From Amoeboaphelidium occidentale (Eukaryota), in the NCBI GenBank assembly GCA_023515795.1, contig JALGPX010000027.1:1-64000 (forward strand): 64,000 nucleotides of DNA, written 5' to 3'. This document shows, one piece after another, positions 1,016 to 33,512 of the stretch. The notes below the pieces were generated by a model. It ran no database searches. It was given only the letters and a program-made list of their open reading frames with translations, and was not told the DNA's origin. The position numbers were made by a program, and so were the translations under genes. Within the stretch, counting starts at the first letter, position 1. Each line of letters begins with the position of its first letter.

Positions 1016-1320
1016 TCAAGACATCTGATCATAACCACGAAACTTCCTGATTAAAACTTCATATGTCACGCAAGCGAAGGAGTACATATCATACTTCTTG
1101 AAATCAGTTCTAGTATAGTTCTTTGTCCAGAAGGCGGTAAATGCGTCGGGTGCGGCGCAATGAACAGAGAGTCCTCTCAAGTTGATAATATTGAACATGC
1201 GTGCAGCAACAATCGTTAAATTAAGAATTGTTACTTTATTATGATTGATTCTAGCTGTGCTTAAAAACTCAGAGTTTACAGATACAGTTTCCGATACTGT
1301 TCCACTTTTGGCTGTGTAAG
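1016..1320 (-). pseudogene. Remnant of a WD40-receptor kinase gene (kinase subdomains VIII-IX only)
   Basis: FNIINLRGLSVHCAAPDAF..TDFKKYDMYSFACVTYEVL closely matches the kinase ends of the intact paralogs. HCD/DFG are absent, and S/T-rich sequence is joined directly upstream. Confidence 0.75.
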
Positions 1321-2494: not shown

Positions 2495-3754
2495 TTATTG
2501 TCTCAATTTCATTGCTGCATAAGAAACGGTAAGCTCTTCAACAGCGTCAGGTTCTGCTCGGTTATTATTTTTTTCCAAGAACTTTCTAAACACTGGTATA
2601 AGGTAACTGTGGCTTACCCATTTGAAGTACCATTCAATAGATTCTTTCTCTTCAACACTAAAATTTACTCCATTAGGGAAGAAAACTTTAAGCACATCAT
2701 CGTCAAACATGGACAGTGTAATTCTGGGGTTAAAGGGGATCCTTCGCCTCCATTTACTATCGCTAAACACATGAGTCCACGTAAGCACCATTTTAAAAAC
2801 ATGAGCAATCTCTTGAAAGTCGTAGCGGAATCCATCCCGGAACTCTAACCTTGCGCAGGCTGCAATAAGCGACCACAAAACAATATTCTTTAGATCATTT
2901 TTTCTGTGCTCAGAGAAAAAGTCCAACATGTGCTTCCAAATTATCCACCAATCGGTTTTATACTCCGTAGACCAGTAAACAATGTTATCCAATGATTTTC
3001 CCAGCGCTTCAATATCTGTCACACGAGTCAGAACCAAATCAAGGAAATAAAACCCCTTTTCGATAGACATGACGGCCTTCGCGATGTAACGCATTACTTT
3101 TGCAGCCAGAAGAGGGCTGCAGAATTTTAAAGACTTTTCGTAGTGCATAGATTTTAAAAAGTCTAATATGTCGATATAAGGCTGGAAATCAAAGTTGTCG
3201 TTATAGTCCCATGTATTTTTTAACAATTTGCTACACCATGTATGAAATAATTCGTCCTCTAAAGAATGCCAAAACCTTGGTTTCATCAAATCAGGTAGTC
3301 CTTGCTTAAACTCCTCTATGTGTTTGTTCAAGAATTTGATCGTTTCTGGGTTTGAAAATATATCGCCTTGAAAAATTCGCCGCCAAAAAGATAGGAAACA
3401 AAGTCCGGCTCCCTCTTGTGCACAACTTGAGGTCATTTCGCCCTGTTTCCAATTGAACCACCAATCGGACCAAACCTTCACTCTAAAATATGCCGCAAAT
3501 TCTTTTTCGTCTTCCAATAGACGCTTCCAAGTTTTCTCCCAATTATCAAACTCCGACTTATGCTTAAGAAGATAAATTATACAATCATCTTGTACAAAAT
3601 TTTTCAGCCATAAAATTTCAAACGTGGTGCCTTTTAGCATGGCAGAAATAGCCGAAGAAGTATCCTTAAAACACTGCACATCCTACTCGTCAAGAAATGA
3701 ACCAATTATTTGTATAATTCCTGGTGGAAGGTCAAGAAGATTTTTTCGAGTCAT
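2495..3754 (-). pseudogene. F-box protein pseudogene 2 (N-terminal F-box plus helical body)
   Basis: ATG at 3754 gives MTRKNLLDLPPGIIQIIGSFLDE*DVQCFKDTSSAI, an F-box motif with an in-frame TAG at 3683-3685, in frame with the 394-aa ORF. Confidence 0.65.
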
Positions 3755-3849
3755 CAAGAAGAATTTTAAAGATCATTCTGTATGTGCTGACTCACTGCAT
3801 TCAGCTAAGGTGAAAGCAGGAATAAATTTTCATGATCTTTCTTTTTATA

Positions 3850-5152
3850 ATTCTAAGCGTGCCGTCGGTATCACAAAATGTATTCAGTTGGGCCTCCTCG
3901 AGATTATTTCTGCCACTTCTGGTAAGGTTTATCTCTCAAGTTTTAAAAGCTCTTCATTGTTGTAAAGTTCATCACTCGATAATAAAAACCGCTCACAAGA
4001 CCCTTAAAAATCATTTGAGCATTTCATTAAAATCTCTTTTTTCGAGAAGATAAAGGCAGTGTTTATCCAAGTAAAGCCATTCTTCGCAATATTTTTTGTG
4101 ATTGTTTCGTCCACAAGGCATAAGACAAAAATGCAATCATACGTAAGTAAATGTTTCCTCTCTAAACCTGGGATGAATGATCTCCATTTATGGGAAGACT
4201 TCAAAATATCTAAATATATCTCAATAGATTCTTCTTTAATCACAATTTCAGAGAAATTCTTGAGAAACCAAGGCATAAAACAGTCATAAAATCTCAATAC
4301 TTGTATCTTCGTTTGCCGATTATCTCTTTCAGTAAAGCGTTGTATAATTTAGCAATAGTAAAGACTGTTTAAGGTGTTGTATTTTCAATTTGCCTGCCAA
4401 TGATTCCAAGTCTTGCACTATCGTGTAAATGTGATATAAAGTAATTGAGGCGCTGAAGAACTTCGTCACAATCAATTACAACCGTGGAAACATTTCTAAA
4501 CATGAAGATAACCATTTTATACACTACTTCTTCATGAATACGTAAATAACTGTTCTTTTTCGCGAACTCCAATACTTCTAGCCAGCTTTTTAACTCTTCT
4601 ACATTCTAAAATGAATAGCAACTCATACTCAAAAAATGTATAAAATCACAGGACAAAAGATCCTCAAAAGAGTGCTATTAATTTGTTTTTGCTAAGTCTA
4701 GATTATCCGCTCTTAGTTTGAAGATTTCTTTTTCTACATAGCCGATTGTGTTTGTTTCGCGAGTCTTAAAAAGTTTCCGGCAAAGCTCAGTAAATATTCT
4801 CCTCTGCTGTAAAACGGGCCGTTCTTTGTCGCATCCCGTCAAAGGATAATTGAAGATATCTTTTTCATAAAGATTATACTCCTTTTTCTCATAGAATCTC
4901 TGGGCAAATACATAGTTATCATCGTACAATCTCGAGATAAGCTCTTTCCAGCATGGAATCTGTTCGCGATGATAGTAAATCATCCTTATGGCGTTATAAT
5001 TATAGTATTTTTAAGTAATCATAATAGAACGAAATATCTGAGGTTATCGTGTTTATCACAGCGTTTGATTTCTGAAAGAGACACAGATAATCAAAGTCAA
5101 GATTCTGAGCAATAATTCGTATGATCTCCGGAGAAAGACTCAAGAGGGACAT
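3850..5152 (-). pseudogene. F-box protein pseudogene 1
   Basis: MSLLSLSPEIIRIIAQNLDFDYLCLFQKSN F-box motif, then a frameshift near 5005 into ...CWKELISRLY, several in-frame TAA/TAG stops (4675-4680, ~4607, 4369) and further frameshifts. The 3' end is approximate. Confidence 0.65.
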
Positions 5153-5220: not shown

Positions 5221-8200
5221 TTAGTTCCATGGCATTCTTTGCTTAAGAAGTTCATAAATGACGCAAGCATATGAGTAGATATCGTATTTCTTGAAGTCCG
5301 CGCCAACATAGTTCTTTCTCCTGAAGTTCACAAATGATTCTGGCGCTGCGTAATGAACAGATAGACCACGAATGTTAATAACATTAAACGCCGTTGTCGC
5401 AATGATCTGGTCGGACAGTATCTGCGTGATTCCAAAATCAGTCAGGTAGCAAAAGAGAAGGTTTCCTTCGAGACGGATCAGAATATTTTGAGGCTTCAGA
5501 TCACAGTGAGCCAGGTAAAGACTGTGCATCACTTTCAATGCTTCGGAGATGTCCTTCATAGCCTTCAAAACAGCTCCCGATCCAAAACTATTCGCTTTTA
5601 TCCAGTCATGTAACGAGCCATCGGGATAATATTTTAGGATAATCGATAAAGGTTTCTCTGTGTAACCAACTATTGAGCAAAAATGAGGAAACGTGTTCAA
5701 CATAATCATGATTCCAACTTCTTGATAGAATGCGTCTTCTAATGACTTTGAGGTAGTTAAGATAATTTTCTGAACTACAACTTCTCCAAACTTTGCCCGA
5801 AGCGAAGCGTCCATTATCTTTGCAATATATAACTCGCCTCCTCCACCTTGAGTAATTTTTTTGACTTTGGCTATGAACGAAGCGTCAATCAAGTATGCAG
5901 CATGTTTTGATATTCCGATTACGGTATTAATGACAGTTTCTAGGTCAGAAATCATGTTGGTCTGACTCGCCTGTGAGCTTGCAATCAAAGAATCGGCCAT
6001 CCCCTTGTCTTTCGATCTGTTCAAAAGAAAGTAACATACAAGACTACCGGCAATCACTGCAGACAGAGCGATGATAATATATGTAATGATCAAGCCAATG
6101 CTGGAGTTAGTATTATCAAAAAGCAGCCTTTTTACCGCCTTCGTCCTTTTAGTAGCGGCATTTCGTAGGGTTGATTTAGTAACTAACCCAAACGAGAAGG
6201 GTTCTGAGGGAAGATTTGGGTTGAACACAAGAACCGAAAAATCTTCACTTCCAGCAAAAACAGAGTTGTTGTAGCATAGAACAGATGTTACAGGTTTTGA
6301 GAAGCCAAAATAAACATCTTCGTGTTTTCCTGTTGGAATGTTCCAACGTCGCACGGATAAGTCTGCACCAACGGAAAACAAAGTACCAGAACAAAAGGAG
6401 ACTGAATAAACACGACCTAAATGACCCAAAGCTGTAGCTGATATTCTTTTGTACACTTTAATTAAATTTCTTGTGTTCAAAGACCACTCAATGATCGTTT
6501 TGTCATCAGAAGTGGAGAAGAAGTGCTCATTAACAACCAACAGACTATTTACCTGAGAAACATGACCTTTTAGCTGAAAATACGGACGTTTGGTATCCAA
6601 ACTCCAAGTGTAAACAGCTCCCGATCTGGATCCTGCAATAATTTCATACTCTGTGACGGCAACACATGTTAAAGGAGCTTGTGAATCTGCGATTTTTGTC
6701 GGGATAAATTCATCATTCCAGGAAATAGAAATCAAAGTGCTTTCATCCTCGATAGCCACTAGAAAAATACTATTCAAAGCAAATCCTCTTATAGTTCCTG
6801 ATCTCGATTTCTGCAAAAGAGAGAAATCTTCTGTATTGTTGAGGGAAAACTCCATAATCAATCCATCAAGTCCAGAAGAAATTATGGAATCCTCGGTGAC
6901 TTGCAAAGTTGTCACATCCTTTTCATGCGCATTCAAAGTCTTCGTGAGTAGTGCAGATTCAATATTATAGATCAAAATCGTTCCTCTCCGTACTCCGACG
7001 AAGAGAAGATTTCCGTGGGCAGCCAATGTTGTCACAGAACTGTTTCTGTCCTCAAACGAAAAGGCTATCTTTCTGGTGGCTAAATTCCATTTCTTGATAG
7101 AACCATCGAAACCTGTTGAGTACATTACAAATAACTCATCAAAACATATAGAGTAGATAATGTCTAGATGGCCCTGATATGTTTCAAGAATTTGAAGTGT
7201 CGTGGGGTCTCTTGATCTGATTATGCTATCCGAATGCCCAGAAACAACACGATTCCTATTTGCAGTAATACAGAGGCAGGATATCGGCTCTAGATATTAA
7301 TCATGCAAAGTGAAAGCTTACCTCTAAGATAACCTATTTTTTCTTGAGATTCAACCGAGAATGCCTCCAAACCGCCACCAGTACATGAGATGATTGAATT
7401 TTGTTTTATCAGAATCGCAAAGACGTTATACAAAGCTGAGAGTTTAACGGATACAAAAAAACTTACTGTTGAAAACACCAATACTATCCTGAGTGGTGAC
7501 CTTCCAAGCTCGAATTGATTTATCGTTCGATCCAGAGTATAAAGTCTCCTCATTTAGAAAAACGGATTCCACAAAACTGGTATGTCCTTCAAAAACCATA
7601 TTTTGACTGCCAGAAACGATGTCCCATTGATAAATTGTTTCTTCATAACCACCAGCGTACAAGAATAATTGATCTGCTGCAATGCTTAGTATTGCACTCT
7701 TTGGACCTAAACGTCAATATCAAATGAATCTAGTACAGTACCTGTATACTTTCGGACAAACTGGAAATTGGGAAGCTCCCACTGATCTGCTGTTAAATCA
7801 GCACTTCCAGAGAAAAGACTGTTATTATACACAAAAAGACAACTTATTGGCCGAGATGCATTTGCAATTGTTGTTATGGGGTTCACACTGTCAAACGAAG
7901 CATCCCACATTCTGATTTCAGCATCTTCGCCTCCACTAATGACAAAGTTTGTCCAAGTAACAACTGCTCTGTTTTTCCTGCTGCGTCCAGAGTAAGTGAA
8001 CAACGGCTCTCCTGTGACTATATCCCATCTTATAGCAGTAGTATCAAAGGATCCCGAGAATAGTTCTCGCCCCACAACTGTAAGACTTTTTATGGCATTG
8101 TTATGAACATCAGGAAAACGGGTAAGTATCTGACCATTACTTATATTCCACTTCAAAATTCCTCGTTGTGCTCCTGCAGAATAAAGTTCTTCTCCGACAA

Positions 8201-8969
8201 CTAGAACCGCATAGATTCCGCCTTCGTGTCCTATGAAAATTCTGATTATGTCACCAGTGTTCACATTCCAGTAGATAATTGTAGCATCAGCAGAGCCAGA
8301 GAAGAGCATATATTGGTAAACATCGATTGCAACCACAGTATTTGTGTGCCCAACAAACGATAAATCAATTTCGCCAGTTGTAGCGACAAGTTTCAAAGCA
8401 TGTGGCGAATTTTGCTTTCCAATGTACAAGAAGTCTCCTCTTGCTACAATGCTTGAAATTTTACCATTGATATCTTTATCAAGTAAATGATCGATAAAAG
8501 CAGTGTGGTTACCTATTCGTTGGACAATTCGTCCCGAGACTAAGTCGACTTGCCTCACATTTGTATCTTCACCAGCGGTAAATAATTGATCATCTCGCAC
8601 AGAAATGCTTTGGACATAAGTACCTGATGATCTCAACCAGATCCTCTTCAAGATCGAGCCATAGTCTAGACTCCAAACGATGATCATATCATCATAGGCG
8701 GACGTTATCATTCTGGAATCATTAGTTACCACAAATGAGTTAACTATGTTCTCATGCGCTCTAAATGTTCTTTGTACCATTCCAGTTGAGATATCTTTCT
8801 GAATAATATCGTTTGAAGCTGTCAAGAGTAGCGAATCCTTGTAGACCACAACTGTATACACATTAGAAGCTCCATCTGGTAGAAGAAAGCTTTTATCATG
8901 CTCAAGGCCCAGGACCATGCATCCAAAGATAGCAGCCAACAGACATGTAAGTAGGTCGATAAGATTCAT
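5221..8969 (-). CDS. WD40-ectodomain receptor-like kinase A (~1203 aa; SP-WD40xn-TM-non-RD kinase)
   Basis: Signal peptide MNLIDLLTCLLAAIFGCMVLG, many GH..WD units, TM IGLIITYIIIALSAVIAGSLVCYFLL, and kinase motifs GGGG/VQK/FYQE/HCDLKPQN/DFG/APE. GT-AG introns at 8474-8512, 7707-7741, 7436-7466 and 7290-7321 give a 3612-nt CDS. Confidence 0.9.
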
Positions 8970-9241
8970 AACAAAGTTGTAAAGTTGAAACAAGAGCTGT
9001 TTGGCCGCAATCCGTTTAAAAGTTCGCCGAGGCCATCGCATCAACACAAAATAAATAAACCGTGTATTTAATTCAAAGTGCTTTGATGATCAGTACAAGT
9101 GGCTTACCGCGTCTGAGCTTTATCAAGAGGTTTTGGTAACGAAATGGGACAGACGAGTAGATCTCACTGATAAAGTTCGTCATATAAAGATACTAAAATT
9201 TATTCACTAACTCATAAAACATTCAGTTTAAACAGAGCTGA

Positions 9242-9761
9242 TTAACGGTGAGTCCAAACCCAGCCGTTAGTTGAAGCTTTTCTTGCCAAAATACTGTACT
9301 TGCCTTCCTTGTCTGGACACTTTTCCATGACTTCTCTTCCTGGAGGCACAGGTCTTCCTTCTAGCTTTCTCAAGCGCTCAAAGAAATCATAGGCACAATA
9401 ATAAACTTCGCTCTTAGCACCCTGGTATCCACCTTTATTTTCCAACAAGTTCATGAGAGCACGTGGAGTGAATCTTAATTCTTTCGCGAACGCAGTTCTA
9501 GTTGTAACATTTAGATGCTTGTGCAGAAAATCAAAAATCAATTTACGAACATCATCGCAGTTTAAATAAAACATCATTTGACTCTCGTCATATAATTCAT
9601 CCTCTGGCCAACTTGGTTCCTGAGCAGCAATCTGATCCAATAACTTTGTATAAGCAGCCTTTGCAGCAGGATCATTCTTTTTTTGGTTGTGCCGTTGAGG
9701 ATGAACCATTGCCACTCTCAACAGGACCACCAAGCGACGACTTTAAATTCTTCTTTGCCAT
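9242..9761 (-). CDS. DUF7726-like protein of unknown function, with an apparent 1-nt frameshift near the 5' end
   Basis: Motif series YLNCDDVRKLI..T.TAFAKEL..LLENKG..GAKSEVYYCAYDFFERLR.LEG.P. A natural-looking start MAKKNLKSS at 9761 joins the ORF only through an indel in an A7 run (9678-9684). Confidence 0.55.
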
Positions 9762-10584
9762 CTACCAACGCATGAAGAACGGAGCACCTTTTTCATACAC
9801 GCCATTCTCAACACCCCGCTTTGCACCGCGATAAGACATGAAACGACCGTATGAATTAGAATTGACACTAAGAAATGTTGGAGGTTCATTCAAAAATCTC
9901 TCATGGTGATACTAATAAATAAGTCAAGGAATCCTCTATTGAACCCGCGAGGCGACGAATCTGATATTTTACCGAGAGTTACACGAAGATCTGCTGAACG
10001 GGTATAAAAGACCAGCAGCTTAAATAATTTACTAAATAACCTGAGAATTATGTTGAAGATAATAAGATTTAACTGTTTCTGGGTCCCGTATCACTATTGT
10101 CGCAATGCAATTGGTTGTTATATTGTGTAATTAAAGTTTCAATTACTGGACATATTCCAGCAGGATGATCGCGTATTGGCGTTCATGGAAGATGCTGCCT
10201 TGTTTGAACCGTTATCGATGGTTGATCTTGCGGCATCATCTTCTTAAATCAGTGAAGTAACAGTTGTGAGAGGTCTGAACCGTTTGGGTACATGAAGGAT
10301 TGTACATCAGATCAAGGTTGACAACTTCTTTTAGATAAGCTTGAACCTTGTGCTTGACGACTAGTTGATAATAGAAACCTTTAACAGTATTAAGAACTAT
10401 TAAAGTCAGTTTGAGGACTAGCATCTTAACTTTTGAGAGCTGAAACACCTCCCAAAGTATACTGTCCTAGACCAAGCGCTTAATGACGGTGATTATAGTC
10501 TTTTTGACAACGCTGTGAGCGGTCTCGGATGGGTCAGCGACTTAACAGACCCAGAGGAAGAGCATGAAGAACTTTTTGATCCTC

Positions 10585-11147
10585 AATTACTTGTTACGCC
10601 AGAACTTCAAGAAGTTTTAGATTCTGAAATAAGCGACAACCCTTATTTAGAAGACACTTTACTCTGAAATGAAGACAACAGAGTAGCTCACGGGGAGGTT
10701 TCATCAACTACAGATCTTTCCCTCCATCCTCCATGATCCAACTGATCGGACGAGGTACCGTGATACACTGCTCAACCATAGTGTTTTAGTGCGGTGGTCT
10801 CAAGAGATACACCGATTTTTCACTATACCCTTTAATCCTCAATGGACGCCAATGTGGCACCACACAGATAGGGGAGTTTTTCGATATTTATCTCCCTCCT
10901 CCAATCGAGGTTCTATACTGTGTCTTCACAGTAGTCGCGCTGGACGGTTACTGAGGTGAAGCTGTGAGAGGTTTACAGTTGTCTAAAGCGATCTATAGGA
11001 CGCATTCAATTTGGTTTTTACTCCAGGACTGATATGGTGAACCGGACCAAAGGACGGCCATCGTGTTCGCAGCAATGTTGGAATTGGCACTTATTCATAA
11101 TGTATATTTATTCAATAGACAACTATACGCCCCTAAACCCTAACCCT
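10585..11147 (+). mobile_element. Copy 2 of the structured element, ending CCCTAAACCCTAACCCT
   Basis: Homologous to 1840-2392. It is preceded by a decayed plus-strand frame ending ...NPYLEDTLL* at 10667, and terminates in telomeric C-strand repeats at 11131-11147. Confidence 0.6.
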
Positions 11148-12256
11148 TTCACGATGTTTGTGCATCTAATCTCATGGTACACCTCCATTGTCGCTCATTC
11201 AGGCTGTTCTAAGCGATGAAACTCTTAAGAACCACTTGATTGACTTGTTTCAACGTCTTTCAACGCGTTTGAGGCATCATCACAGATGCAAGGATAGTCT
11301 AAGCCTCCTGCCGTTTTGCGCCATGCGTTAAAACTTGCTCAAATTAGAATGATTTTGAGATGGTATGCTTTCGATTCTATTTAACCGTGTGTCTCCATTA
11401 TCGGTATCCAATTTTACACTCTTTGACCTTCTGCGTATAATTATAGCTTTCAACTTTCTCTTAACTATGACGGTCATGTTGAGTGCTTTATCGAACTTTA
11501 ATGTTTGTTTCAGCTTCATTAGTCTGATCTTTTGTGTAAACCGTAAATCATAGTTTGGCTGAGGTTGTGAAACTATTCAGAATAGAAGAGATTCTCAGCG
11601 AAATCCCATGAACAGTTGCTGGCTAGATATTATTCAATTCGCCGGAAGTACTAATGTGATATCGGCACCCGATAAAGAGTTATTCTTTTAATGCTACGAT
11701 TCCGGCATATAATTTCAATCCAGTTCGGACCAGTCAGGACTTGGTTTTGATTATTAATCTCCCACTTCCTAGAAGAGCCTCGATCAAGCCTTTATCTAAA
11801 TATTCGACTTTAAGAATCCGCGTGAAAAGAGAAGTATATGAGAATACTGTCTAAAGATAATGAAACTATGGCATTCTTGCTCGTTTTAATCTAGAACAAG
11901 GATTGAAAAACGGCAACTACATGCTCATCAATTGTATTAAGCATAAAAACGTCAAAAGAGACCAGAACAGATGTATTTTGAGTCAAATCAATGGTAGTAG
12001 TGGTCTGTGGTGTATCTGAGTCAATTATAATGATATATGACATTATTTAATATATAATGACTAATTTTTGTTTTCTGACGGGAAGAAAACCAACTTTTAC
12101 AACCAAAGTTTTCATGTCATATCCAACAGGTTCTCGCTAAGATATAGTTGCAGGCTCTTCATTAACATGTGAGAAATAAACCCTATTTACTTCTTTGAGG
12201 TATAAATACGGAGCCACATCCATTTTATTGTAATTAAACCACCGAATAACATCTTT

Positions 12257-15200
12257 CTAGTCCCATGGCGATCGTTTAGCCAAGACTTCAAACATAATGC
12301 AAGATAGAGAGTAGATATCATACTTCTTGAAATCAGCTCTACCAAACTTTTTTGACCTAAAGTTTTCGAAAGCTTCTGGTGAGGCGTAATGAACAGAGAG
12401 ACCCCTCAGATTGATCACATGGAACGACTTTGTTGCAATGATCTTCTCAGAAAGAACTTGTGTTATTCCAAAGTCAGTCATGAAACATGTTGGAACACCC
12501 CTTTCAATCTGCACTAAAACATTTTGACTCTTTATATCGCAGTGAGCCAAATAATGGGAATGCATTGTGTTCAGAGCTGAAGATATTTCTCTCAAGATTT
12601 TGACAGTTGTTCTCAAGCTTAAGTGATTCTTACGCAACCATTCATTCAAGGAACCATCGGGATAGTATGCCAATATCATGGACAGAGGGTTTTCTGTGTA
12701 TCCGAGTATTTTGCAAAAGTTTGGAAACGTAGACAGCATGATCATGATTCCGACTTCTTGATAAAATGCATCTTCAAAGGGCTTACTCTTTGCAAATATA
12801 ACCTTTTGTACAACAATATCTCCCAATTTTGCTCTTAAAGCGGCATCCATGGTCTTGGCAAGATAAATTTCTCCTCCGCCGCCTGCTGCCAACTTCTTGA
12901 TCTTTGCAATGTATGAGCTGTCTATGAGATAAGCGGCGTGCATTGAGATTCCCATGACACTGTTGATAATGGTTTCCAAGTCAGTGACTGTCTGACTTGA
13001 ATCAGTTTTATGAGCAAAAACTGCTGGCGATGACTTATCACCGCTCCTTTTCTTTCTGCTAAAAAAGAACAAGGTCACGCAACATGAAATCAAAATTGCG
13101 ACTGAAACAGTGATGTATATGATCGCTTGACGATTCTGCATCAACGATTCTGTTGACAGAAAGCTGGCACGTATCACTGTCCTTCTTTGCCTTTGACCCA
13201 ACTTAGATGTTGTTAAAGTACCACGAGAAACAATGTTTACGTCTTTGAGGTCGGTTTTGAACAAAAATACAGTAGAATCTTCACTCCCTGTCAGAACTGA
13301 ATCATTATAGCAAAGAACGGATGTAACTGGTTTGAAATGACCGACCATTATGTCTTGGTGTCTTCCTGTCTCTATGTTCCATCTACGCGTAACCAGATCT
13401 GAACCTCCAGAAAACAGAGCCCCTCTACAAATTGCCAAAGAATTAACAGGGCCCAGATGACCAAGGTTAAAATTCGAGGTTCTTTGGAACGCTCTCACAA
13501 ATTGTCTCCCAGGAAGCGACCATTGCATAATTGTCATATCTTCTGATGCAGAGAATAACATGTCATTATAAGCAATCAAATGATTAACCTGGAACGTGTG
13601 TTTGTTCAAAACAAAAGCCAAAGTGTATGTCCTAAGATCCCAAGCAAAAATATTTCCGGATTTTGATCCTGAAATAATAAGGGCCTCGGTAGCAGTAAGG
13701 GTTTTTAACGGCTCAGATGCGTAAATTGTGTTTTGTGATGTCAAGTTTCCGTCTCGAGGCCAAATTACAACTTCAGTATCCCTAGTCAGCGAAATCAAAC
13801 TATTGGAAGCCAACGTGAGGCTTTGAAGCGGAGATGCTGAATCAAACAGAACTCTAGAATTCATGATTTCATTTCCTGCAAACCTTAACAACTTGCCGTC
13901 CATTCCAGAAGAAAAGACAATATCGTCCTTGATGGCTATGGAAGAAACAGCACCACGATGTAAATCAATAGTGCCAAATAGAGTCGTGTCATTTAAATTG
14001 AAGCATCTGATATCACCAACCATCGTACCGACAAGAAGAAAGCTTTTGTGAAGCGCAAGTGTAGTTACTGAACTATTTCGGTCTTCGAAGGAGAAAGCCA
14101 CTGTTCGAGATGCCATATTCCATTTCTTGATAACACCGTCATAACTGCATGAGAACAAAATAAAGTTTTCATCGAAGGCTATCGAATGTACACCATCTTC
14201 ATGACCTGAATACGTCTCCAAGATTTCCAGAGTTGCGGAATCTCTGGATCTGATCTGATGATTGACATGACCGCTAAACAAGCGAGTTCCTCTTATAGCC
14301 ACGCAATTGCACCCAGCGCTTTCTGCACAATTAAAGAAAAGCTTAATGAGAAATACCTCCTCGATTTACAACCGTCGCACCTGTAAATACATCGAACATG
14401 GCTATTCCGCGGCTTGTTCCGACAACCAAGAAATTTTCAAACGTTACCGTTGAGAAGATGAGATCGATTGCTAAACTTTAGATCATAACAAATCAGGTAC
14501 CGTCAACTGATCGTACAAACTGAAGATCATCTTTAGACCAAAGCTGTACGATCCCATCCTCTGATCCGGAAAAAATAAAGTCGTTATTATGTTTGATCTC
14601 AACGATGGTGCCTTGATGGACACCGAATCTTGCTGCAATAACACCGGTTGATATATTCCAGCTCACAAGGATTCCATCATATCCGCCAGAGTAAAGAACA
14701 CCATCAGTAAATAGAAGCGCACGTATGGTATCTAGATTACCTAAACCTTAAGCCGTATTAAAGACAAACGCTTACTTCTAAAAATCATTGTACAGATCAA
14801 TTGTGTCAGGTTCCATTGTCGGATTGTTTGGTCACTGCTTCCCGAGAACAACAGGTTTTCGTGAAGATGTAAACTTTCTATCTCTGAAACATGATCAGTT
14901 AGAACGGCGTATGGGAGATAATTGTTCGAGGAAATATCCAAGAGCCGAATAGTGGATTCTTCTCCGCTGCTAATCATTGTGTTTTTCCACAAAACGGAAT
15001 TTAATGTTCTTTTTAAGCGGCTCCTATATGTAAAGTCCGGGAAATGGCCTGTCAAAGGCGTTCGTTTGATAACTGTATCGCTTGAACCAGAAAAAAGCGT
15101 ATCAGAATTCACTGCCAAACTAATTACAATATCAAGATGAGAAGGCAGAAATATTTTCCACTTAAGCCCATTTTCAGTTCTCCAGGAGTAAATATTTTTA

Positions 15201-15967
15201 TCTGTACCAGCAACGAATAGAATGTCATTCGCCACCAGCATAAAGTAAGCAAATCCAAAGTAATCTAAGTACCGAGTAATAATTTCACCAGTGTCTACGT
15301 TCCAGGAAAAAATATTTTTGTCAGTTGAAGCAGAATACAATGAGTTTTTGTAGAACTCCAATGCGTTGATTGCACCGGTATGGCCATCAAAGTTCATATC
15401 CAGCAACATGTTTGAGGTTCGATATTTCTCTAATTGTCTTGTCCTGGAAGCTTTCCCAACATACAGAAAGTTCCTATTCACAATAACCTTTTGAACTTCA
15501 ACTCCCAGAGCAATTGTTCTAGCTGTGCTTGCTCCAGAGAGATCAATTTTTCTTAGCTTCTGATCTGTTCCACCAGCAAAGACAAAATCATTCTGGTAAG
15601 AAATACTTATGATCGCATTCGAAGAAGTTTCAAGTTTAATTCTTCTGATCACAGAGCCAGTCTTTACGTTCCACACAATCAAGGTGCAATCCAGTGAGAC
15701 AGTGATCATTCTGTCATCGTTGGTCAACAGAATTGAAGTCACAATCGACGAATGCGCTCTAAAGTTTCTTTGAACAGCACCTGTAGCAATATCTTTCTGA
15801 ACAATATCATTTGCTGATGTCAGCAACAAAGAGTTTTGGTACAGTGCGATGTAGAACGCAGAGGCAGCAGTTTCTTTCAGCAAGAAGCTCTTTTCATGTT
15901 CAAGACCAAAGGGAGTGAGAGACAGAAGTGTGGTGAATAGACAAATGGTCCAGGGTAAAAGATTCAT
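12257..15967 (-). CDS. WD40-ectodomain receptor-like kinase B (~1203 aa)
   Basis: SP MNLLPWTICLFTTLLSLTPFG followed by LEHEKSF, WD40 repeats, TM AIIYITVSVAILISCCVTLFFF, and HCDIKSQN/DFG/SPE. Introns at 14741-14775, 14471-14500 and 14323-14356 give a 3612-nt CDS. Confidence 0.9.
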
Positions 15968-16547
15968 GTCAGCAGGTTGAATATGAAACAAGAGTAGCAA
16001 TAGCCTTGTTTGATGCTGTCTCGGAGCAATGTTCAAACTAACCATCACGAGTTTGCCAGCAATAATATTGTTGATTTTATCGCGCAGAGCTCCAGCTCAA
16101 GCGTCTACATGCTGCGAGCTGGAGTGCGAATGGGCTTTCTTAAAGGGGGTATATCTAGCTCGCTCTGAACCCTGCAATCTTATGTTCCTTCTGTTTACAT
16201 GAGTTGAAACAGACAAAGTTTTGGGTGCTTAAAGTCTGTAATTTAGATTGCTTAACTGTTTGGAACAGGGACATTAACGCTGTACGAAATATCAGACACG
16301 TTTTCTTGGATTTGAATGCAAATGGTGGTAAAAGGCCTCTTGCGTTCTCCAGGAAGAATCGTGCATGATGTTTCGTCAGCTAACTGCAAATTTAATTGGT
16401 GGAGAAAGGTGATTATGCTTCCACAGTCTCCGCCAGCGTAGCCGAGAAATCGGCGATTCGTGTAACGCTCTTCTAAGTAAGATTTGGTTTTATTTGAAAT
16501 AATCCTGTAGCGAAGGGCCAGTTATTATAAAGAAGTACAAATAACGT

Positions 16548-19500
16548 TTAGCTCCATGGAGTTTTCTTTGCGAGTACTTCAAAAGCAACACAACCAAGCG
16601 AGTAGAGATCATGCGCCTTGTAATTGACCCTTCCGTGCGATTTTGAAGCGAAATATTTAAACGACTCTGGTGCAGCGTAGTATATAGATAAACCTCTCAG
16701 GTTAACGACATTGAACAACTTGGAAGCCAAAACTCGATCAGATAAAACTTGAGTAATACCAAAATCTGTCAAGAAGCAGGAAAGTACTCCATTAGAGTTC
16801 TTTACCAAAACATTCTGCGTTTTCAAGTCACAATGAGCCAAGTGATGATTGTGCATGGTCTCTATAGCTTTTGCGATTTCTTTTAAACATTTTAAACCAT
16901 TAGGAGTGCTAACTTGTTTCGACCTAAGCCATTCATAAAGTGATCCATCGGCATAGTACTTAAGAACAATCGAAAGCGGTTTCTCAGTATACCCGATAAT
17001 CTGACAGAAATGAGAAAATGTCGATAGCATAATCATTATTCCGACTTCTTGATAGAAAGCGTCTTGTGCGCTTTTGCTTTTGACGAAGACAACCTTTTGT
17101 ATTACCAACAAACCCGCTTTCTTGGCTAACAGTGGATCCATAATTTTAACCAGAAAAAGCTCACCTCCACCGCCAGTTGCGATTTTCTTAACCGTCGCCA
17201 ATACGGAACCGTCAAGAAGAAACGCTGCATGCTTAGAAATTCCCATTATAGAATTGACAACAGTATCCAAGTCAGTGAAAGTCGTGCTGCTATATTTCTC
17301 TGATGTTAAAGCGGTTGGGCTTGATGACCCTGATATTCTGATTCTGAAGAACAGGCAGCCAAAAAGGATCAAAATAATAACAAATGCAGTCCCTGCAAGA
17401 GCTACAACTAAACCAATACTCACAGTGAAATTTGCAACTGACACTTGTTTGACTTTAATAACTTTTTTTCTGATGTTACCGTCGGTACCAATGAGTGTTC
17501 TAGTTAAGCTGTAAGAATTGGATTGTTCCGGAAGAAAAGGCTTGAAAGACAGGACGCTAAAGTCTTCACTTCCTGCATAAACAGAGCCATTGTAGCAAAC
17601 GACTGCGGTGAAAGGTTTTGAGGCGCCAAAGTAGACGTCTTCATGATTACCAGAAGTTGGGTTCCATCTTCGAATAGTTCTATCAGCACCAGCAGAGAAA
17701 AGAACATCTTGACACATTGATAGTGAATTAACTGGACCTAAGTGCCCAAGAGCCGTTGATGAATATCGCTTGAATACTTTGACTGATTCTCTGTCTTTCA
17801 ATGACCATTTTACAATTGTATTATCATCTGATGCAGAAAAAACTCCATCGTTTTCAGCTAAAATCATATTGACCTCCGCATTGTGTCCGTCAAGTTGAAA
17901 ATCAAACTCAAGCGAGACGAGGCTCCAGACAATTATTTTGCCTGTTTTAGAACCAGCCATTAGGTACACGTCATTGGAGGTAATGCAAGACAAAGGTTCA
18001 ACTGCAGAGACGCTTTTGACAATTTCATATGTGAACAAATTGATAATTTCAATTACTTCTTTGCCATTCAAAACAAACAAACTATTATTGCGAATTGCTA
18101 AATCTAGTAATGGATGATTAGCAGAAACTAACGGACTAGAAATCTGAATATTATTTTGAAGCTCTGACCGAAAGAGCATTCCATCAGAGCCAGTTGAATA
18201 AATCCAATCCCTTTCAACAAGCAGTCTTGAAACTGTCTTGTTGTGGATTTGACTGGACGATATTACTCTCGATGTCGACATGTCAAAAACATTAATGATC
18301 CCATCTCGTTGACCCACAAAAAGTGTTTTCCCTAAAGATATCATTGAAGTAACAGAGCTTCTCCTATTCTCAAAAGAATATGCTGTTCTTCTGGTTGCCA
18401 TGTTCCATTTGATTATAGAACCGTCAAAACTTGCGGAAAATAAGATTTCTTTTTCGTCATAAAAAAGGGAATATACGACATTAGAATGCCCCCTAAAAAT
18501 CTCTATCGTACTTAAATAGTTTAGATCTCTTGCTCTAATCAGACCATCTAAATGCCCACTGTAAACGCGAGAGGAACCTGCTGCTAAGCAAAGGCAGATG
18601 TAATCCTCTCTAATATCAGCGATGGTTGAGCCACTATATGTTGAAAACAGTTGGAGTCCTACTTGTGAGCAAGAAACAAGTGAGTCTTCTCGAAGCAGTA
18701 GAGCTGCAGTTGATTCCGGAACTAGAATGTTAATGCTTTCTGCTGAAGAAAAAACCGTCATAGAAACGTGTCAGTTGCGCTGAAGATTTTGACCATTGAA
18801 GAATTGCAAGATCATCGGAACCAGAAAAAACGAAATCTCGAGATGCTACAAGGGCGTTGATCCGATACTGCGCACCTTCAAATGTCCCAACTTGTTCTCC
18901 TGACGTGATGATCCATTGCCTAATGATCAGGTCTGGACCTCCCGAGTAAAGGAAATCATCACTAGCCACTAAAGCAGTTACAATATTTGTGTGCCCTAAA
19001 ATTCAGTCAGGCTAATGAACGATGATGAAAATACCGCTTAATGCTCTAATTCTTGTGACATCTGTCAAATTCCATTGAGCTATCGTGGTATCAGAGCTGG
19101 AAGAAAAGAGGTAATCTTGATGAACCAGAAGGTTAGTAATAGAACTTTGATGACCGAGGAGTACTCTAACAGGTTCTAAGCTGTTAATTGAAACATCCCA
19201 AATTCGGATTTCTGAATCATCACTGCCGCTCATAGCGTAGCTTTTCCAAACAACCACAGATCTGAGTTTTGTATTAATACCTTTGAAAGACTTCATCGGC
19301 AGACCGGATGATATGTTCCACTGAAGCACAGTGGTATCATCCGATCCGGAGAAAAGAGCTTGTCCTCCGAACCACAAGCATTGAATCCTATTCGAATGTG
19401 ATTTTGAAAACACTTTCATGATCTGCCCATCATTGATGTTCCACTTGATAATTCTTAGATCCCAGCCACCAGAATAGAGTTCACCCTCATGATCGATAAT

Positions 19501-20260
19501 TGCAAGCACACTCAAAGAATGGCCTTGATATCTTTTCATGATTTCGCCAGTATCAGTGTTCCAGCTTATAATATCCATTACACTACATGATGCCAATAGA
19601 ATGTTACCAATTAAGTGCATAGCAGTAACAGAGCTTTCACAACCGCCAAACGCCATAATTTGTCTAAATGATGAAGTTGCGATCTTTTCCAATGGAGCGA
19701 CTGAAGCCCATTTCCCTACGTATACACTATCGCCACTTACTAAAATCTTTGAAACTCTAACGGAAAAATCTATAGAATTTAACCCAAGTTATTTGTAAAA
19801 TACCTCTTGACCTAACAACCCTTCCTGTAACCAAGTCTAAATGCCTGATTTTGCCATCGTCACCTCCTGAGTAAACTTGGCCACCTTGTAAAGATAATCC
19901 TTTGACCAAAGTACCCGTTGATCCCAACCAGATCCGCTTTAGGATCGCACCTGATTCCAAACTCCAAACGATAATCATATCATCCGACGCTGATGTTATC
20001 ATTCTGGAGTCATTTGTGACTACAAATGCCGAGATCAAATTTGTATGAGCCCTGAAAGTCCTCTGTATTGCACCTGTTTCAATGTCTTTCTCAACAATGT
20101 CGTTGGAAGATGTCAAGAGTAAGGATTCCCTATGCACACTGATCGAGTAAACTACAGCAGCAGCATCATGTACTAAGAAACTCTTCTCATGATCGAGCAA
20201 AGAGGATAGATGTAGCATCGTAGCTATCAGCAGCCATATTCCTAAGTCTGCATGAAACAT
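16548..20260 (-). CDS. WD40-ectodomain receptor-like kinase C (~1201 aa)
   Basis: SP MFHADLGIWLLIATMLHLSS followed by LDHEKSF, WD40 repeats, TM IGLVVALAGTAFVIILILFGCLFF, and HCDLKTQN/DFG/APE. Introns at 19770-19803, 18996-19034 and 18722-18755 give a 3606-nt CDS. Confidence 0.9.
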
Positions 20261-20587: not shown

Positions 20588-23362
20588 TTACAAGATTGGT
20601 ACACCATAGACTTTGAAATCATCAATTCTTCCATACAACATCGTATTAGTTCCCGAGTTAATAGCGCCAACGTAGAAATCATTATTGCCAGGATTAATTC
20701 CAGTTGCTATACGTTAAACAAGAAAGCTTCAAAATTTACCTGATATTGTTGTCTGCGCAACTACTACACAATTCCAAGCCAATTTAATCGTGGTTCCGGT
20801 CGTTGTCGGTGTATAAGAAGCAGTGATACGAACCCACTGGTCCAAGTAACAATCATCCGGAATATTGTAACTGATAGTTGTAATTGGTCTTGTTCCACTT
20901 GCAGACTTAATACTAAAGGACAATGTATTCTTGACAAATCTCAAATAAACTTGGTCATTTCCAGTCCATTTTGTGAATAATGCATCTTCTGCTGTAATAC
21001 CATATCTCATCACAAGCATATCGACTCCAAAACCGTTGGTGAATTGGAATGTCCCAGATCCTGGAACAGTAAAGAATGTATCTACGTCATTGAAATTCAG
21101 AGCAGTTCCAGTGAAACCAGAAACCAAACCACTCTTGAAGTTGATATTTCCTGATAACGAAGAACCCATCAAATTGGGAATTTTACCAAGAGCGTAAGCT
21201 GCTGCATCATTGAAGTCATATGAAATTATTGGAGCTGCTGCTGGAGTTGTTGTTAGAGCAAGACATGGACTAGATTTTGAACAAGGGCAGTTTGGACAAG
21301 CAGGTACTGTTGGACCGATATTAACTTGGAAGACCCCAACGTCATTTTTGATAGATACAGCAATAACTGAACCATAAATAACACCACTTGGATTATTCAA
21401 AACAGCATTTGGAGCAAATAAACCACCTCTTATACCGACATTCACCGCATTTACAACTGTAGCATCACAAGTCAACCATTCAACAGGAATATTAGCCAGG
21501 GCCTCCATGTCCATTCCGGAAAAGCTAACTGTTGCGCCACCAATCATAATTACAATTAACTTGTGGAAAGACGGTTTGTAATTCACAAGAGGTGAAATAG
21601 ACTTAACATAAGCCCAATCTGCCGGGTCGATAACAACAATCTCAATCGGATTAACGCCAGTTAGAGTAATAGTCAAGACACCACTGTAAGCTCCTGAGAT
21701 TGAATAGAAAGTTCCTGTTGGAGGGTACGATTTGAATAAGGCACACGTACCTTTCAATTTAACAAATACATTGGCAAAATCAAGGTATTTCGGAATAACT
21801 TTTACGGAACAAGATGGATTCAAAATACCACTGTTAATAGTACTCCCTGTTGCTCCAACAACAATATCACCATTATAATTATTTCCGCTTCCCCAAGTAA
21901 TGGTTTTGCCTGCCACAACATCAACAACAGAACACGGTGGATTAATACCAAGTTTATCCCCTACAGAAAATCCGTTGCCAAGCTTAACAGTCCCGCCTGC
22001 AGCAAGAGCTCCTTCAATGTCTCCTGTACCAGCAGTGTAATCACCAAAAAGGAACACGGAATAATTTAATGCAGGACCCTTGTCTATACATGGAGTTAGA
22101 TCAGTTGGTGGATAAACAGGCAATGTCTTGTTCATTGAAAAGCAAATGCCTGGGCAAGGTGGCAACGCTGGACTGACATTAATTTGAACGGAACCATTCA
22201 TGAAATGAGCGTAAACATTGCCAACAATCAAACCACTAGTATTAATAATATCAGCATCAGGAGCCAAGATGTTTCCATTCACTTGAATATCTTTTATCGT
22301 CATCAAAGTTGCATCGCATGCTAGCCAAACAACGTTATAACCCAAAAGAGCTGTCATTTCAACAGAAATAAAATCAACTTTTGTGCCACGTAGCTTAAAT
22401 ACAATAGTTTGAGGTGATGAACTAGGTATTAAAGAGATGGTGTCGATTGTCTTGACCAGCAACCAATCTGAGGGAGAAATATCAACTATTTGTACAGGAT
22501 CATTCGTAAAGAACTTCACTTGCAAAAGACCACCAGACGCAATAGAATAGGAAGTTGTAGCAGGCAATGAAAAGAATTGTGAACATGTGCTACGTAGACA
22601 ATTTCTGGCTTGAACAAAATCCAAGTAATCAGGGTCGTACACAATTTGGCAGCCAGGATCAATTCCTGTATAACGAGGATACGGCAACTTTTGGACAATA
22701 GCACTACCACCAAACGTTCTACCGTATTCCCAGCCAGAGATTTTTCCGCCAAAGACAATATCAAATACGGGTGCAGTTGGAGAGCATGGAGGAGTGATAC
22801 CAAGTTTGAAACCAACTGAAAAGTATGACATCAAATAAGCATCACCTCCAATTGCAACAGAACCTTCAACATCCGGACCACTGTAGTAATCTCCACTCAA
22901 AAACAAGTTGAACTCTCCAACATCACCAAAGCCAATACATGTTGGAACAGGTGTGCTGGTTGTTGTCGTAATTGCAGTAGTTGTGGTTACTTGAGTACTT
23001 GTTGTAATTGCCGTGGTGGTGGTCACTTGGGTACTTGTTGTAATTGTGGATGTAGTTGTGGGATCTGTACATGTATAACTGGTTAATGTGGTGAAAACGG
23101 TTGAAGTCGTAGGGCAGATAGTTGTAACAGTCGTTGTAACAGTTCCGGTGACAAAAACAGTTGATCTTGAAGAAGGAGTTGGGATAGCCTCTGGAGAATC
23201 CGGAGCAACAGTGGTAAAAAGCGCTGCGGATGTTTCATGTGGGCCAGCATGTCTTCTTTCTCTTTGAGTCAAATTATCACCAAAAGAGCCTTCATAATTC
23301 AAATAGAGCTGAAATAAAACCAAAACAGCTGCAACAAGAAAGGCTTGAGACACTAAAGACAT
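20588..23362 (-). CDS. Secreted/surface protein: Thr-rich linker, two choice-of-anchor-A (ice-binding-like) domains, C-terminal LamG-like domain
   Basis: Hydrophobic N-terminus and TTSTQVTTTTAI repeats. Two domains carry the F(N/S)xFxxGD..D(V/I)EG..A.GG..FSVG and G..(L/F)AP.A motifs. Intron 20707-20739 completes a LamG-type end, FYVGA..LYGRIDDFKVY. Confidence 0.75.
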
Positions 23363-23438
23363 TGTTAACTAAGTTTTAGTTTTTGCTTGGGAAAATGAAA
23401 CGGTCAGCGCCCGGCCAACAACATCTTTCTTGTTTGAC

Positions 23439-25014
23439 ATGCGAGCGTTATCAAGTACTTTCAGCATTTTGCTTGTTTCAAGTCTAATTCCACTCTGCTC
23501 TGCAATTGACTACCTTATTTACGGCGGCACAAGCTCTGTAGATTATGAAACCCTGTTGACTTCCCTTGGTAAGCTTAAATCATTGAAAAACTTGCTTAAC
23601 TAATGTTCCAACTGAAGGTAAAACATTCCAGGTCGCAACAGATGCACAATGGTCGGCCATGACTGCTGCTGATTTTCAGAAGTTCTCGGCAATTGTGCTT
23701 CCTGATCCAACTTGCAGTAGCAGTATTGCGACAAAGTTGGCAGTTCCGCTGGCAAACAGAAATATCTGGTCATCTCCTAGTGTTATAACAGGAAACGTTG
23801 TCATCATTGGAACAGATGAACACTATCATTGGAGAATCAGTGGTGTTGATAGAGGTCGAGCGTTGGCCAGGAATATGTTACTGTTTGCTGGTTCAGAAGT
23901 TGGTAAAACTGGTCTTTATGTTTCATTGGTTTGTATTACTTGGTTGAAGCTCTTTTATCTTTTAGAGTTGCTATTACAGTGGTACTACAACTCCGGTAGC
24001 TGTTGCGTTATTGGATCAGTTTACAACTGACAAGCCTTTTAGAGCTGTTCAGCCTCCTGGTTGTTTCGATAATGCGTAAGTCCAATTGTATGATGGTGAC
24101 TTATTACGCTGTCTATAGTCATATTGTTGCTACCCATCCTTCTTTGGTCGGTTTGACTGATGCACTTTTGGCCAATTGGGGTTGCTCAGTACACGAGATC
24201 TTCACTACCTTTCCCAAAGAATTCATTCCACTGGTTATTGCTAGATTGCCTACTGGTCTGACTTTTGCTGATGGTTCAGTTGGAACTCCGTACAGTAACT
24301 TACTTTGGCTGTCAACAATTGATCCTTTTAGTTCTTGCTCGTGGTGTATCTCTAAGTCCTCTTAAGTGTGGTGATGGAATTATTCAAGCACCAGAACAAT
24401 GTGATGGTACGTTACTTACTGGTATCATGATTTTTGCTAACTCTTTAGATGGAAATACCGTTCCTAATGACGGGTGTTCAGAAAAATGTAGGACTGAATT
24501 TTGTGGTGATGGCATAGTCCAAAAACCTAGAGAGCAGTGTGATAATGGTTCGAACTTACCTGGAAGTGGTTGTAACAATTGCAAGATTGAGACTGTTCCG
24601 CCAGTTTGCTCAAAAGTTGTTGCCAGTGTCGCTTCAGTATGGCCACCGGACGGAAGATTAGAAAAAATTGTCTTCAGTGGCGCTGTTACTTCACCTCCTG
24701 GTGGTATGGTAAACTATACAGTCCTCAGAATCAATCAAACGGAACCAACAATGCTTACACCGGCTGATACAAACTGTCCAGATGGTTTTATTACTACTTC
24801 TTCAATAAGAATCGAGCGTGAAAGCGCAGACGCAAGAAATACTTTAGGCCGTACATATTTTATTGATTATAAGGCTACGCAACCTGACGGTCAAAGTTGT
24901 ACAGGAAGAGCCACCATTTGTGTATCGCCAAATCAATGTGGTACTTGTGCAGTTCCTCCAGATGCTATTTTATACGATTCTACCACCTGTAACAAAGCTA
25001 TTGTATCGGCTTAG
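23439..25014 (+). CDS. Secreted protein (~455 aa): bacterial-type N-terminal domain, Myxococcus-type Cys-rich repeats (DUF4215-like), and a WPP..GR.Y C-terminal domain
   Basis: SP MRALSSTFSILLVSSLIPLCSA. Introns at 23569-23617, 23929-23965, 24076-24118, 24295-24331 and 24407-24448 give a 1368-nt frame. Two CGDGI.Q..EQCD.G repeats are present. Confidence 0.75.
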
Positions 25015-31754: not shown

Positions 31755-32312
31755 ATGGATCCAATACCTCCAGATTTTCTACAATTACTTTTATCGTGTA
31801 ATAACAATAATAAAGACCTCCACTTCAAGTTGACTCTATTGAATACAACCATAAAAGAATTCAAAGATAAAAACACAAAGAAAGCAATACAATTATGTTC
31901 AGAAGTATTGTTGGGATTACAACAAATACAAGGACCTTCTTCCTTCTTCCTAAAAGATTTGATTTCAGTTAGTGGAGTAGAGTTTAATGACGCGAGAATA
32001 TTGTTGGAAGCATCTCTGCATCTTTACATTGCAAAACTTTATTCTTGCAGCAGCAGTAATCCATCATCAAAAGAATCGCATCTATTGCAGTGTCAGCAGC
32101 TGCTGCTACTACTACTACTACGAAAAAGCAATACTACTACTACTACTATTACTACTACTACTACTACTACTACTTCTGAAGAATCTTTATTAAAACAACA
32201 ACAACTTCGTAAAGAACTTCGTAAAGAATGCATTATGGAATTGGCTCAAGTTTATAAACTAAAAGGAAATGAACATTTATACAATCTTACAATGCGCCAA
32301 TTATTACAATAA
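31755..32312 (+). CDS. Hypothetical helical protein with poly-T/L/Q tracts
   Basis: 185-aa ORF with an ATG start, lying between neighbouring genes; no family recognised. Confidence 0.5.
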   Translation: MDPIPPDFLQLLLSCNNNNKDLHFKLTLLNTTIKEFKDKNTKKAIQLCSEVLLGLQQIQGPSSFFLKDLISVSGVEFNDARILLEASLHLYIAKLYSCSSSNPSSKESHLLQCQQLLLLLLLRKSNTTTTTITTTTTTTTSEESLLKQQQLRKELRKECIMELAQVYKLKGNEHLYNLTMRQLLQ

Positions 32313-32425
32313 TACTTGATAATATTTTGAAGAAGAATTGAATTTTAACCTCTTGAATGGTAACTTAGAGTCTAATTGTTGTTTGAAATAAATAACGTAT
32401 TCTCCTCCTGCCACCACTGAATCTC

Positions 32426-32462
<37 letters not shown>

Positions 32463-32982
32463 CGTTAGTTGTTCCAATAACTCTAATATACTCTTTACAT
32501 TCAACAATACACTACTCCCTTCTGTTTCTACACTTATTTGNCTTGAATGGTAACTTAGAGTCTAATTGTTGTTTGAAATAAATAACGTATTCTCCTCCTG
32601 CTACCACTGAATCTCTTGTTGTTGTTGTTGTCGTTAGTTGTTCCAATAACTCTAATATACTCTTTACATTCAACAATACACTACTCCCTTCTGTTTCTAC
32701 ACTTATTTGATACTCTTGACCATCATTAACATATCCTTCTTTATATTTACATTTAAAAACAGTAGCACCAACAAAGGGACAAGTAGCAATTAGTCTAGCA
32801 GCTTGATTGGATTGTAACTGGAGTAATTGTTTTCGAATGTACTCAATAACTACATCTCTTTCAATAGAACTCTCTATAGACCCTGATAATCCTAATCCTG
32901 ATAACCCTAATAATAATTTCCTTCTAATATAATCCTCACATTGTAACAACACCACTCCCATCACTTCTGCTGATTCATCAGA

Positions 32983-33027
<45 letters not shown>

Positions 33028-33320
33028 GAACAATACTTTAAAATCCTTTTGTACATAATAGAAGCGGGAAGTAGAAGTAGAAACCAAATCTTCAAACGAT
33101 TCATTTAAATTCTTAGCAGCAGTTCCAGTTCCAGTTCCAGTTCCAGTTGTTGTCGAATCATAGTAATACTCTCTTTTGTTCTGAAGTGTTTGAACCAATT
33201 GAGATAGAATACTCCTACTTGTTCCTTTACTAACAATTCTTAATTCTTCAACAAAAACCAAATCCAATAATTTCAAGAATTTCAAATCACCAAGAAGGAA
33301 TAGATGATCCTTGTAAGATA

Positions 33321-33353
<33 letters not shown>

Positions 33354-33476
33354 GTTTCTTCTTTTGATTCAAAGGATTGAATACATCTAATGAAACAACA
33401 TTAGAACTAGTCTTTGTAACAATATTCTTCTTTTTAAATAATGAATCCAATTTCATCCTCTTATAATTATTATTAT

Positions 33477-33512
<36 letters not shown>

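Follow-up and report, generated by a model that had tools for sequence, protein, structure and literature searches.

Can a receptor-like protein kinase work without the helices that complete its C-terminal lobe (C-lobe)? The question is raised by a 64,000-nucleotide stretch of the Amoeboaphelidium occidentale genome (assembly GCA_023515795.1, contig JALGPX010000027.1, positions 1 to 64,000; hereafter the window), in which three paralogous kinase genes, K1, K2 and K3, lie in tandem on the minus strand and each stop shortly after helix alphaF. In ordinary eukaryotic protein kinases (ePKs) the helical subdomain alphaG-alphaH-alphaI (GHI) anchors to alphaF, and in PKA its Arg280 pairs with Glu208 of the APE motif; the activation segment and GHI, joined by this Glu-Arg pair, are described as co-evolved defining features of ePKs (PMC3415842). 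Here we report that K1-K3 almost certainly lack GHI, and we favor, with a probability of roughly 55%, the reading that they are catalytically active, single-pass receptor Ser/Thr kinases predicted from their sequences to fold without it.

K1-K3 end one residue past a shared PW motif

The three proteins end in ELLKQRMPWN (K1), EVLAKRSPWD (K2) and EVLAKKTPWS (K3), so that the stop follows one residue past PW, after alphaF, and the Pfam Pkinase match stops at model position 198 of 263 in each of them. An original prediction, made from the letters of this DNA, had noted that the stop lies at the same position in all three, is written with different codons and is not preceded by a nearby GT donor. 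This description was borne out: TAA, TAG and TAA form the second codon after the Trp, and the last GT upstream of the stop lies 39, 27 and 27 nt away in K1, K2 and K3, respectively, with no late GT common to all three, a position and lack of sharing that rule out an intron just before the stop. Of the features expected of an ePK, GHI is absent from K1-K3, as is the buried ion pair between the APE Glu and the alphaH-alphaI Arg, the Arg-bearing segment not being encoded. The cytoplasmic part of K1, as modeled by AlphaFold (mean confidence score, pLDDT, 80.4; residue numbers throughout are those of this part, counted from window position 6012), closes with a helix, residues 240-257, which is alphaF. 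It superposes on kinases of the tyrosine kinase and tyrosine kinase-like (TK/TKL) groups with Z scores of 21-22, up to EGFR 916, BRAF 657 and Src 464, which we take to be the loop just past alphaF. The model of a full-length relative, P0227, has four more helices beyond alphaF.

GHI might still be supplied at the RNA level, by a distant exon, trans-splicing, read-through or a variant code, or by a separate small gene for alphaG-alphaI. In favor of such completion, our GHI searches at the DNA level covered the window only. Within the six frames of the window, a GHI profile built from 7 GHI-keeping relatives, against which held-out members score 13.6-57.2 bits, found no match (best -2.7 bits). 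With a profile from 15 relatives, we then scored 620 one-intron splice forms, each bypassing a stop, lengthening the protein by 35 residues or more and using an acceptor within 2.5 kb; none contained GHI, the best reaching 0.8 bits vs. 20-39 bits for four unrelated control kinases. The 300 nt past the stops of K1-K3 align no better than shuffled sequence, whereas the last 300 coding nt do align. The tails after PW vary in length across the family and are not GHI-like, and no GHI piece was found elsewhere in the chain in 245 truncated proteins scanned whole, leading us to reject a circular permutation as well. Read-through, or TAA and TAG read as Gln, was rejected since Gln is encoded by CAA and CAG (51 codons) and K1 has another TAA two codons on and a TGA soon after. 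A juxtamembrane helix was considered as a substitute for GHI and rejected, because the segments of KIT and EGFR that align to it are juxtamembrane too, and an open reading frame (ORF) after K3 (16252-16521), subdomain XI-like by eye, gave no score against the GHI profile.

Transcripts of relatives also argue against completion at the RNA level. Among Paraphelidium proteins derived from a Trinity/TransDecoder transcriptome (PMC6299283), 11 of 12 gene clusters end 14-35 residues past the alphaF Asp, and the twelfth has a full GHI, showing that the pipeline recovers GHI when it is present; the 12 clusters are not a census and share ~35% identity with the window genes. Splicing to a downstream exon for subdomains X-XI, the outcome that the original prediction had named as fatal to it, was thus seen neither in the window nor in the transcript-derived relatives. 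Because these tests covered the DNA of the window and transcripts of relatives, a distant exon for K1-K3 is excluded only by inference, and we judge completion by RNA or by a separate gene to be very improbable.

The truncated end is shared across the family

A close-homologue search returned 81 matches, 66 of which are family members. In 61 of these 66, the distance from the alphaF Asp to the end of the protein is 17-22 residues (19 in K1-K3), indicating that the end of K1-K3 is not due to chance. Four of the remaining five stop short of alphaF, and the apparent continuation of the fifth (P0030) runs into the WD40 start of another receptor and is likely a fused gene model. P0030 and P0325 are both NCBI models that run from alphaF into the adjoining gene; these kinases may be prone to mis-joining by gene callers.

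Searching 1.84 billion representatives with a profile gave 309 matches at E values up to 1e-30, and our counts for the distant family cover the best 150 of these 309. Three were set aside as unrelated multi-kinase proteins; among the other 147, 134 lack alphaG-alphaI, 5 keep GHI and 8 end before alphaF. The GHI-less representatives mostly end at most 35 residues past the alphaF Asp (122 of 134, 106 of them at 14-24 residues), a few of which may be contig-edge fragments, and the tails of the other 12 are longer but show no GHI motif. In P0163, P0175, P0179, P0190, P0192, P0208 and P0256, low-complexity tails rich in Ser, Gln and Pro, reaching up to 130 residues past the alphaF Asp, replace GHI. 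The family members that carry an organism name all come from aphelids (A. occidentale, A. protococcarum and Paraphelidium). Most members are metagenome proteins, with organism labels looked up for 30 chosen ones, and K2 is identical to one metagenome protein at 629 of 681 residues. The ectodomains that precede the GHI-less module are of WD40, Kelch, NHL or cysteine-rich type (32 proteins scanned). A metagenome locus scan yielded 23 loci, all with distant kinases at 26-34% identity and none with family DNA, and the ESM Atlas returned generic kinase clusters only.

The catalytic residues are retained

Pairwise comparison of K1-K3 gave proportions of synonymous differences (pS) of 0.52-1.06, about saturation, and of nonsynonymous differences (pN) of 0.16-0.33 for the kinase parts vs. 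0.39-0.41 for the less conserved WD40 part, showing that the kinase parts are under purifying selection and arguing against a pseudogene or pseudokinase. As the original prediction had stated, the Gly loop, beta3 Lys, alphaC Glu, catalytic D.K..N (within HxD.K..N) and DFG are all present in K1-K3, and so are an extended activation segment with APE and the alphaF Asp; the losses that would mark a pseudokinase (beta3 Lys, catalytic Asp or DFG Asp) were not found. In an alignment of 148 GHI-less rows, these residues are nearly invariant: beta3 Lys82 (137/139) and alphaC Glu98 (144/144) in the N-terminal lobe (N-lobe), Asp171 (148/148), Lys173 (148/148) and Asn176 (147/148) in the catalytic loop, Asp192 of DFG (148/148), APE Glu225 (139/147, with Asp in 7 more) and alphaF Asp244 (145/145).

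Two features beyond the original prediction are a non-RD catalytic loop, HCD in K1-K3 and with Cys in 113 of the 148 rows, and a Gly loop whose first Gly is Ala or Thr in the close family. The latter would fit an ATP-binding pseudokinase that switches without phosphate transfer, as would the impairment of ordinary kinases by loss of the Glu-Arg pair. Pseudokinase families usually erode the catalytic Asp, Lys, Asn and DFG Asp; here these are kept in 147-148 of 148 rows, in a set that reaches down to ~35% identity to K1, and we regard a pseudokinase as very improbable. Position 218 is Ser or Thr in 147 of 148 GHI-less rows, which together with Lys173 we take to point to Ser/Thr specificity. In the juxtamembrane segment, all 64 close relatives of the WD40 subfamily carry Thr26 and Ser35, which are candidate regulatory sites; their motif (K1 residues 22-38, window 5913-5949, minus strand) is reminiscent of the GS box, through which phosphorylation regulates TGF-beta type I receptors.

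Possible compensation for the missing subdomain

If K1-K3 are active kinases that fold without GHI, the WD40 ectodomain would bind an outside ligand, probably derived from the host or the environment, and the receptors would cluster. The clustered non-RD kinase would then phosphorylate its own juxtamembrane Thr/Ser and, subsequently, downstream targets. Within the domain, the role of alphaG in supporting the P+1 loop would pass to a longer alphaEF helix, one that full-length relatives have as well, Arg231 would stand in for the lost alphaH-alphaI Arg, and the alphaE face that formerly packed on alphaI would now be polar.

For evidence of such compensation, we compared 206 alignment columns between truncated members and 15 GHI-keeping relatives. 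Position 231, in the helix after APE (residues 224-232) and six residues past the APE Glu, is Arg in 104 of 146 truncated vs. 1 of 14 full-length rows. In alphaE, position 157 is large and hydrophobic in 23 of 147 truncated vs. 11 of 15 full-length rows, and position 145 is Lys in 75 of 145 vs. 0 of 15. The link between alphaEF and alphaF is ~7 residues longer in the aphelid family than in PKA (19 vs. 12). The top covariation pairs, from 134 effective sequences in which many lower pairs are noise, are 167-196 (z 9.1), which we take to be the beta6-beta9 pairing of active kinases, 229-243, 105-167 and 172-251; two weaker pairs, 217-230 and 219-227, would, if less firmly, link the long alphaEF to the P+1 loop. 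These patterns suggest that Arg231 in the lengthened alphaEF and the polar alphaE positions compensate for GHI.

Several points, besides the noise in the covariation, weigh against active kinases that manage in this way. Position 231 is Lys in 9 of 14 full-length relatives. Columns off the GHI face (116, 168 and 170) differ as strongly as those on it, so descent alone can produce such contrasts. A contact between Arg231 and Glu225 is proposed from sequence, and an i+6 spacing is not that of an ordinary intrahelical bridge. Positions 246, 250 and 253 of alphaF, which we assume face GHI in ordinary kinases, stay mostly hydrophobic in the truncated set, and something may still cover this face. 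Catalysis in PKA is strongly impaired by mutation of Glu208 or of its partner Arg280 (PMC3415842), and a Raf-like kinase truncated before subdomains X-XI behaves as a recessive allele, as do other mutants of the catalytic domain (PMC4892718). As a precedent on the other side, OspG lacks subdomains VIII-XI and still autophosphorylates (PMC12756638).

The hydrophobic stripe of alphaF would fit a domain that is truly truncated, with an intact active site, but depends on complex formation for its function; the bare alphaF would be covered by a second copy or by a full-length family member serving as shared co-receptor, and signaling may be partly allosteric. Full-length and truncated members share organisms (full-length members are 1 of 12 identified in Paraphelidium and 2 of 3 found in A. 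protococcarum), and many truncated sensors with varied ectodomains stand beside few full-length kinases, as in receptor/co-receptor systems; the full-length relatives are possible shared co-receptors. EFR, moreover, is an active non-RD kinase, and kinase-dead EFR still activates BAK1 (PMC11259431). Dependence on a complex is harder to reconcile with alphaE positions 145 and 157, which are polar in the truncated set, as expected of a solvent-exposed face, and with the monomer model, which is confident through alphaF; also, the 32 NCBI A. occidentale models retrieved by searches seeded with truncated members included no full-length one. We consider this explanation less likely than not, though the most serious rival to active kinases that fold without GHI. 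Of the mechanisms that the original prediction had offered, a minimal kinase is thus favored, completion by a partner or dimer remains a rival, and the pseudokinase is disfavored by the near-invariant catalytic residues.

Origin and number of losses

The 15 relatives that keep alphaG-alphaI carry a C(W)...R(P) motif there, and 10 of them have HND in place of HCD. Full-length relatives, mostly with HND in the catalytic loop, include P0154, P0198, P0220, P0227, P0287-P0289, P0291, P0292 and P0295. In a tree sampling 40 of the 148 truncated rows and a small set of outgroups, truncated and full-length rows formed one branch (55 rows, SH-aLRT branch support 98), separate from nine kinases of plants, fungi and Entamoeba; six plant kinases formed a branch of their own (SH-aLRT 97), and the aphelid kinases did not nest within RLK/Pelle. 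Since the outgroups have GHI, its loss is derived. The original prediction of an ancestral, selected truncation is accordingly supported by the family-wide distribution, the presence in two aphelid genera, the purifying selection and the derivation from full-length relatives.

Unconstrained trees scatter the full-length rows, requiring 4-5 changes, and one branch (SH-aLRT 96) unites two full-length with three truncated rows; several independent losses of GHI are possible. A tree constrained to a single loss was not rejected by the approximately unbiased test with mostly bacterial outgroups (p-AU 0.07) or without outgroups (0.26), and with eukaryotic outgroups it gave a p-AU of 0.63 and a likelihood 8.4 units above the free tree. 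The simplest reading of these sequences is a single old loss before the split of Amoeboaphelidium and Paraphelidium.

Gene structure and surroundings of K1-K3

K1-K3 each show a receptor-like architecture, with a hydrophobic leader (judged by eye), an ectodomain, a single transmembrane (TM) helix and a cytoplasmic kinase (Table 1). Their introns, deduced from frame switches against NCBI models, are short (~31-39 nt), of GT-AG type and located in the WD40 part; the same comparison revealed no intron in the kinase part. The genes run upstream of the interval covered by the original prediction (5221..16620), K3 starting near 20260.

Table 1. Coordinates of K1-K3 and related features in the window.
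Feature	Position	Strand	Details
K1 gene	5221..8969	-	N-terminal hydrophobic segment (likely signal peptide), then WD40 repeats, a single TM helix and a kinase that ends after alphaF
K1 inferred GT-AG introns	7741-7707, 7466-7436, 7321-7290	-	tblastn with NCBI models
K1 TM helix	6037..6099	-	hydropathy 2.49 across 21 residues
K1 cytoplasmic part (263 residues)	5224..6012	-	juxtamembrane segment, Gly loop 5847, HCD 5508, DFG 5439, alphaF Asp 5283, PW 5232
K1 stop	5221..5223	-	TAA, second codon after W
K2 gene	12257..15967	-	architecture as K1; TM 13123-13061, HCD 12544, DFG 12475, PW 12268
K2 inferred intron	14775-14741	-	remaining K2 introns provisional
K2 stop	12257..12259	-	TAG
K3 gene	16548..20260 (start approximate)	-	architecture as K1; TM 17411-17349, HCD 16835, DFG 16766, PW 16559
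K3 inferred introns	19803-19770, 19034-18996	-	remaining K3 introns provisional
K3 stop	16548..16550	-	TAA
ORF 68 nt past K1 stop	5000..5152	-	weakly F-box-like (sub-threshold Pfam F-box match, E 0.049)
Orphan fragment of a fourth copy	1016..1285	-	activation segment to alphaF; APD for APE, without PW, stop shortly after alphaF

The ORF just past the K1 stop is likely the next gene rather than a kinase exon; the region 2495-5152 (minus strand) holds a multi-exon gene whose start bears the weak F-box match, along with a 395-residue ORF without a Pfam match. Upstream of the orphan fragment no kinase sequence was detected by tblastn, and the fragment is likely debris of tandem duplication. Farther away, an 879-residue ORF (20729-23368, minus strand) combines a stretch rich in Thr with a pair of ice-binding-like adhesive domains (PF20597, E 2.5e-62), features that make it a candidate host-attachment protein, and an ORF at 24262-25014 (plus strand) has two DUF4215 cysteine-rich repeats (E 2e-10). 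Two ORFs at 44382-46277 (plus strand), the first of which matches NB-ARC/AAA weakly (E 0.044 and 0.099), are possibly one P-loop gene. The region 32000-37400 is low in GC (27-35%) and contains runs of poly-Thr/Asn, gaps of N and, next to the gaps, repeated blocks, which suggests a local assembly duplication.

Relation to known kinases and significance

Aphelid receptor-like protein kinases are mentioned in PMC10608142, which cites Mikhailov et al. 2022 (doi 10.1016/j.cub.2022.08.071), and are very likely the same family: the named proteins closest to K1-K3 are A. occidentale MP638_ models (~45-65% identity in the kinase region), together with proteins of A. protococcarum and Paraphelidium. No published description of the GHI truncation was found in the literature searched, which did not cover Mikhailov et al. 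2022; excerpts of PMC10406608 and PMC8657485 contain nothing on GHI-less receptor kinases.

Like TK/TKL kinases (EGFR, BRAF, CTR1 and Src), the aphelid kinases have the N-lobe, catalytic loop, DFG, long activation segment with APE and alphaF, but they lack alphaG-alphaI and the alphaH-alphaI Arg and have a longer alphaEF-alphaF link. With plant non-RD receptor kinases (EFR and G-type lectin S-receptor kinases) they share a variable ectodomain, one TM helix, a non-RD loop and tandem expansion, and plant matches to the family carry HCDIK too; the plant kinases differ in keeping a full C-lobe and falling outside the aphelid clade, and the aphelid ectodomains are WD40, Kelch, NHL or cysteine-rich. 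A shortened C-lobe is also found in OspG, which is active, and NleH1/2 (PMC12756638). These soluble secreted effectors lack subdomains VIII-XI, including the APE segment, whereas VIII and IX are present and conserved in the aphelid kinases. Finally, eukaryote-like kinases such as choline kinase and aminoglycoside kinase resemble ePKs through alphaF only and lack GHI (PMC3415842), but their activation segment is short and alphaF is followed by helices of another kind, in contrast to the long ePK activation segment and absence of any helix past alphaF in the aphelid family, which descends from full-length ePKs.

We propose, at somewhat less than even odds, that these proteins form a large, old and previously undescribed aphelid family of active receptor kinases that lost GHI and kept the activation segment and APE, with an alphaEF Arg taking over the salt bridge. 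If true, two elements viewed as co-evolved hallmarks of ePKs have been uncoupled. The family (at least 134 sequence clusters) keeps the activation segment and has lost GHI, and its full-length sisters allow comparison, so that what GHI is for (folding, catalysis, substrate docking or regulation), and how a kinase copes without it, becomes directly testable. These kinases are likely a main sensing system of aphelids, algal parasites that stand next to Fungi and crash algal cultures.

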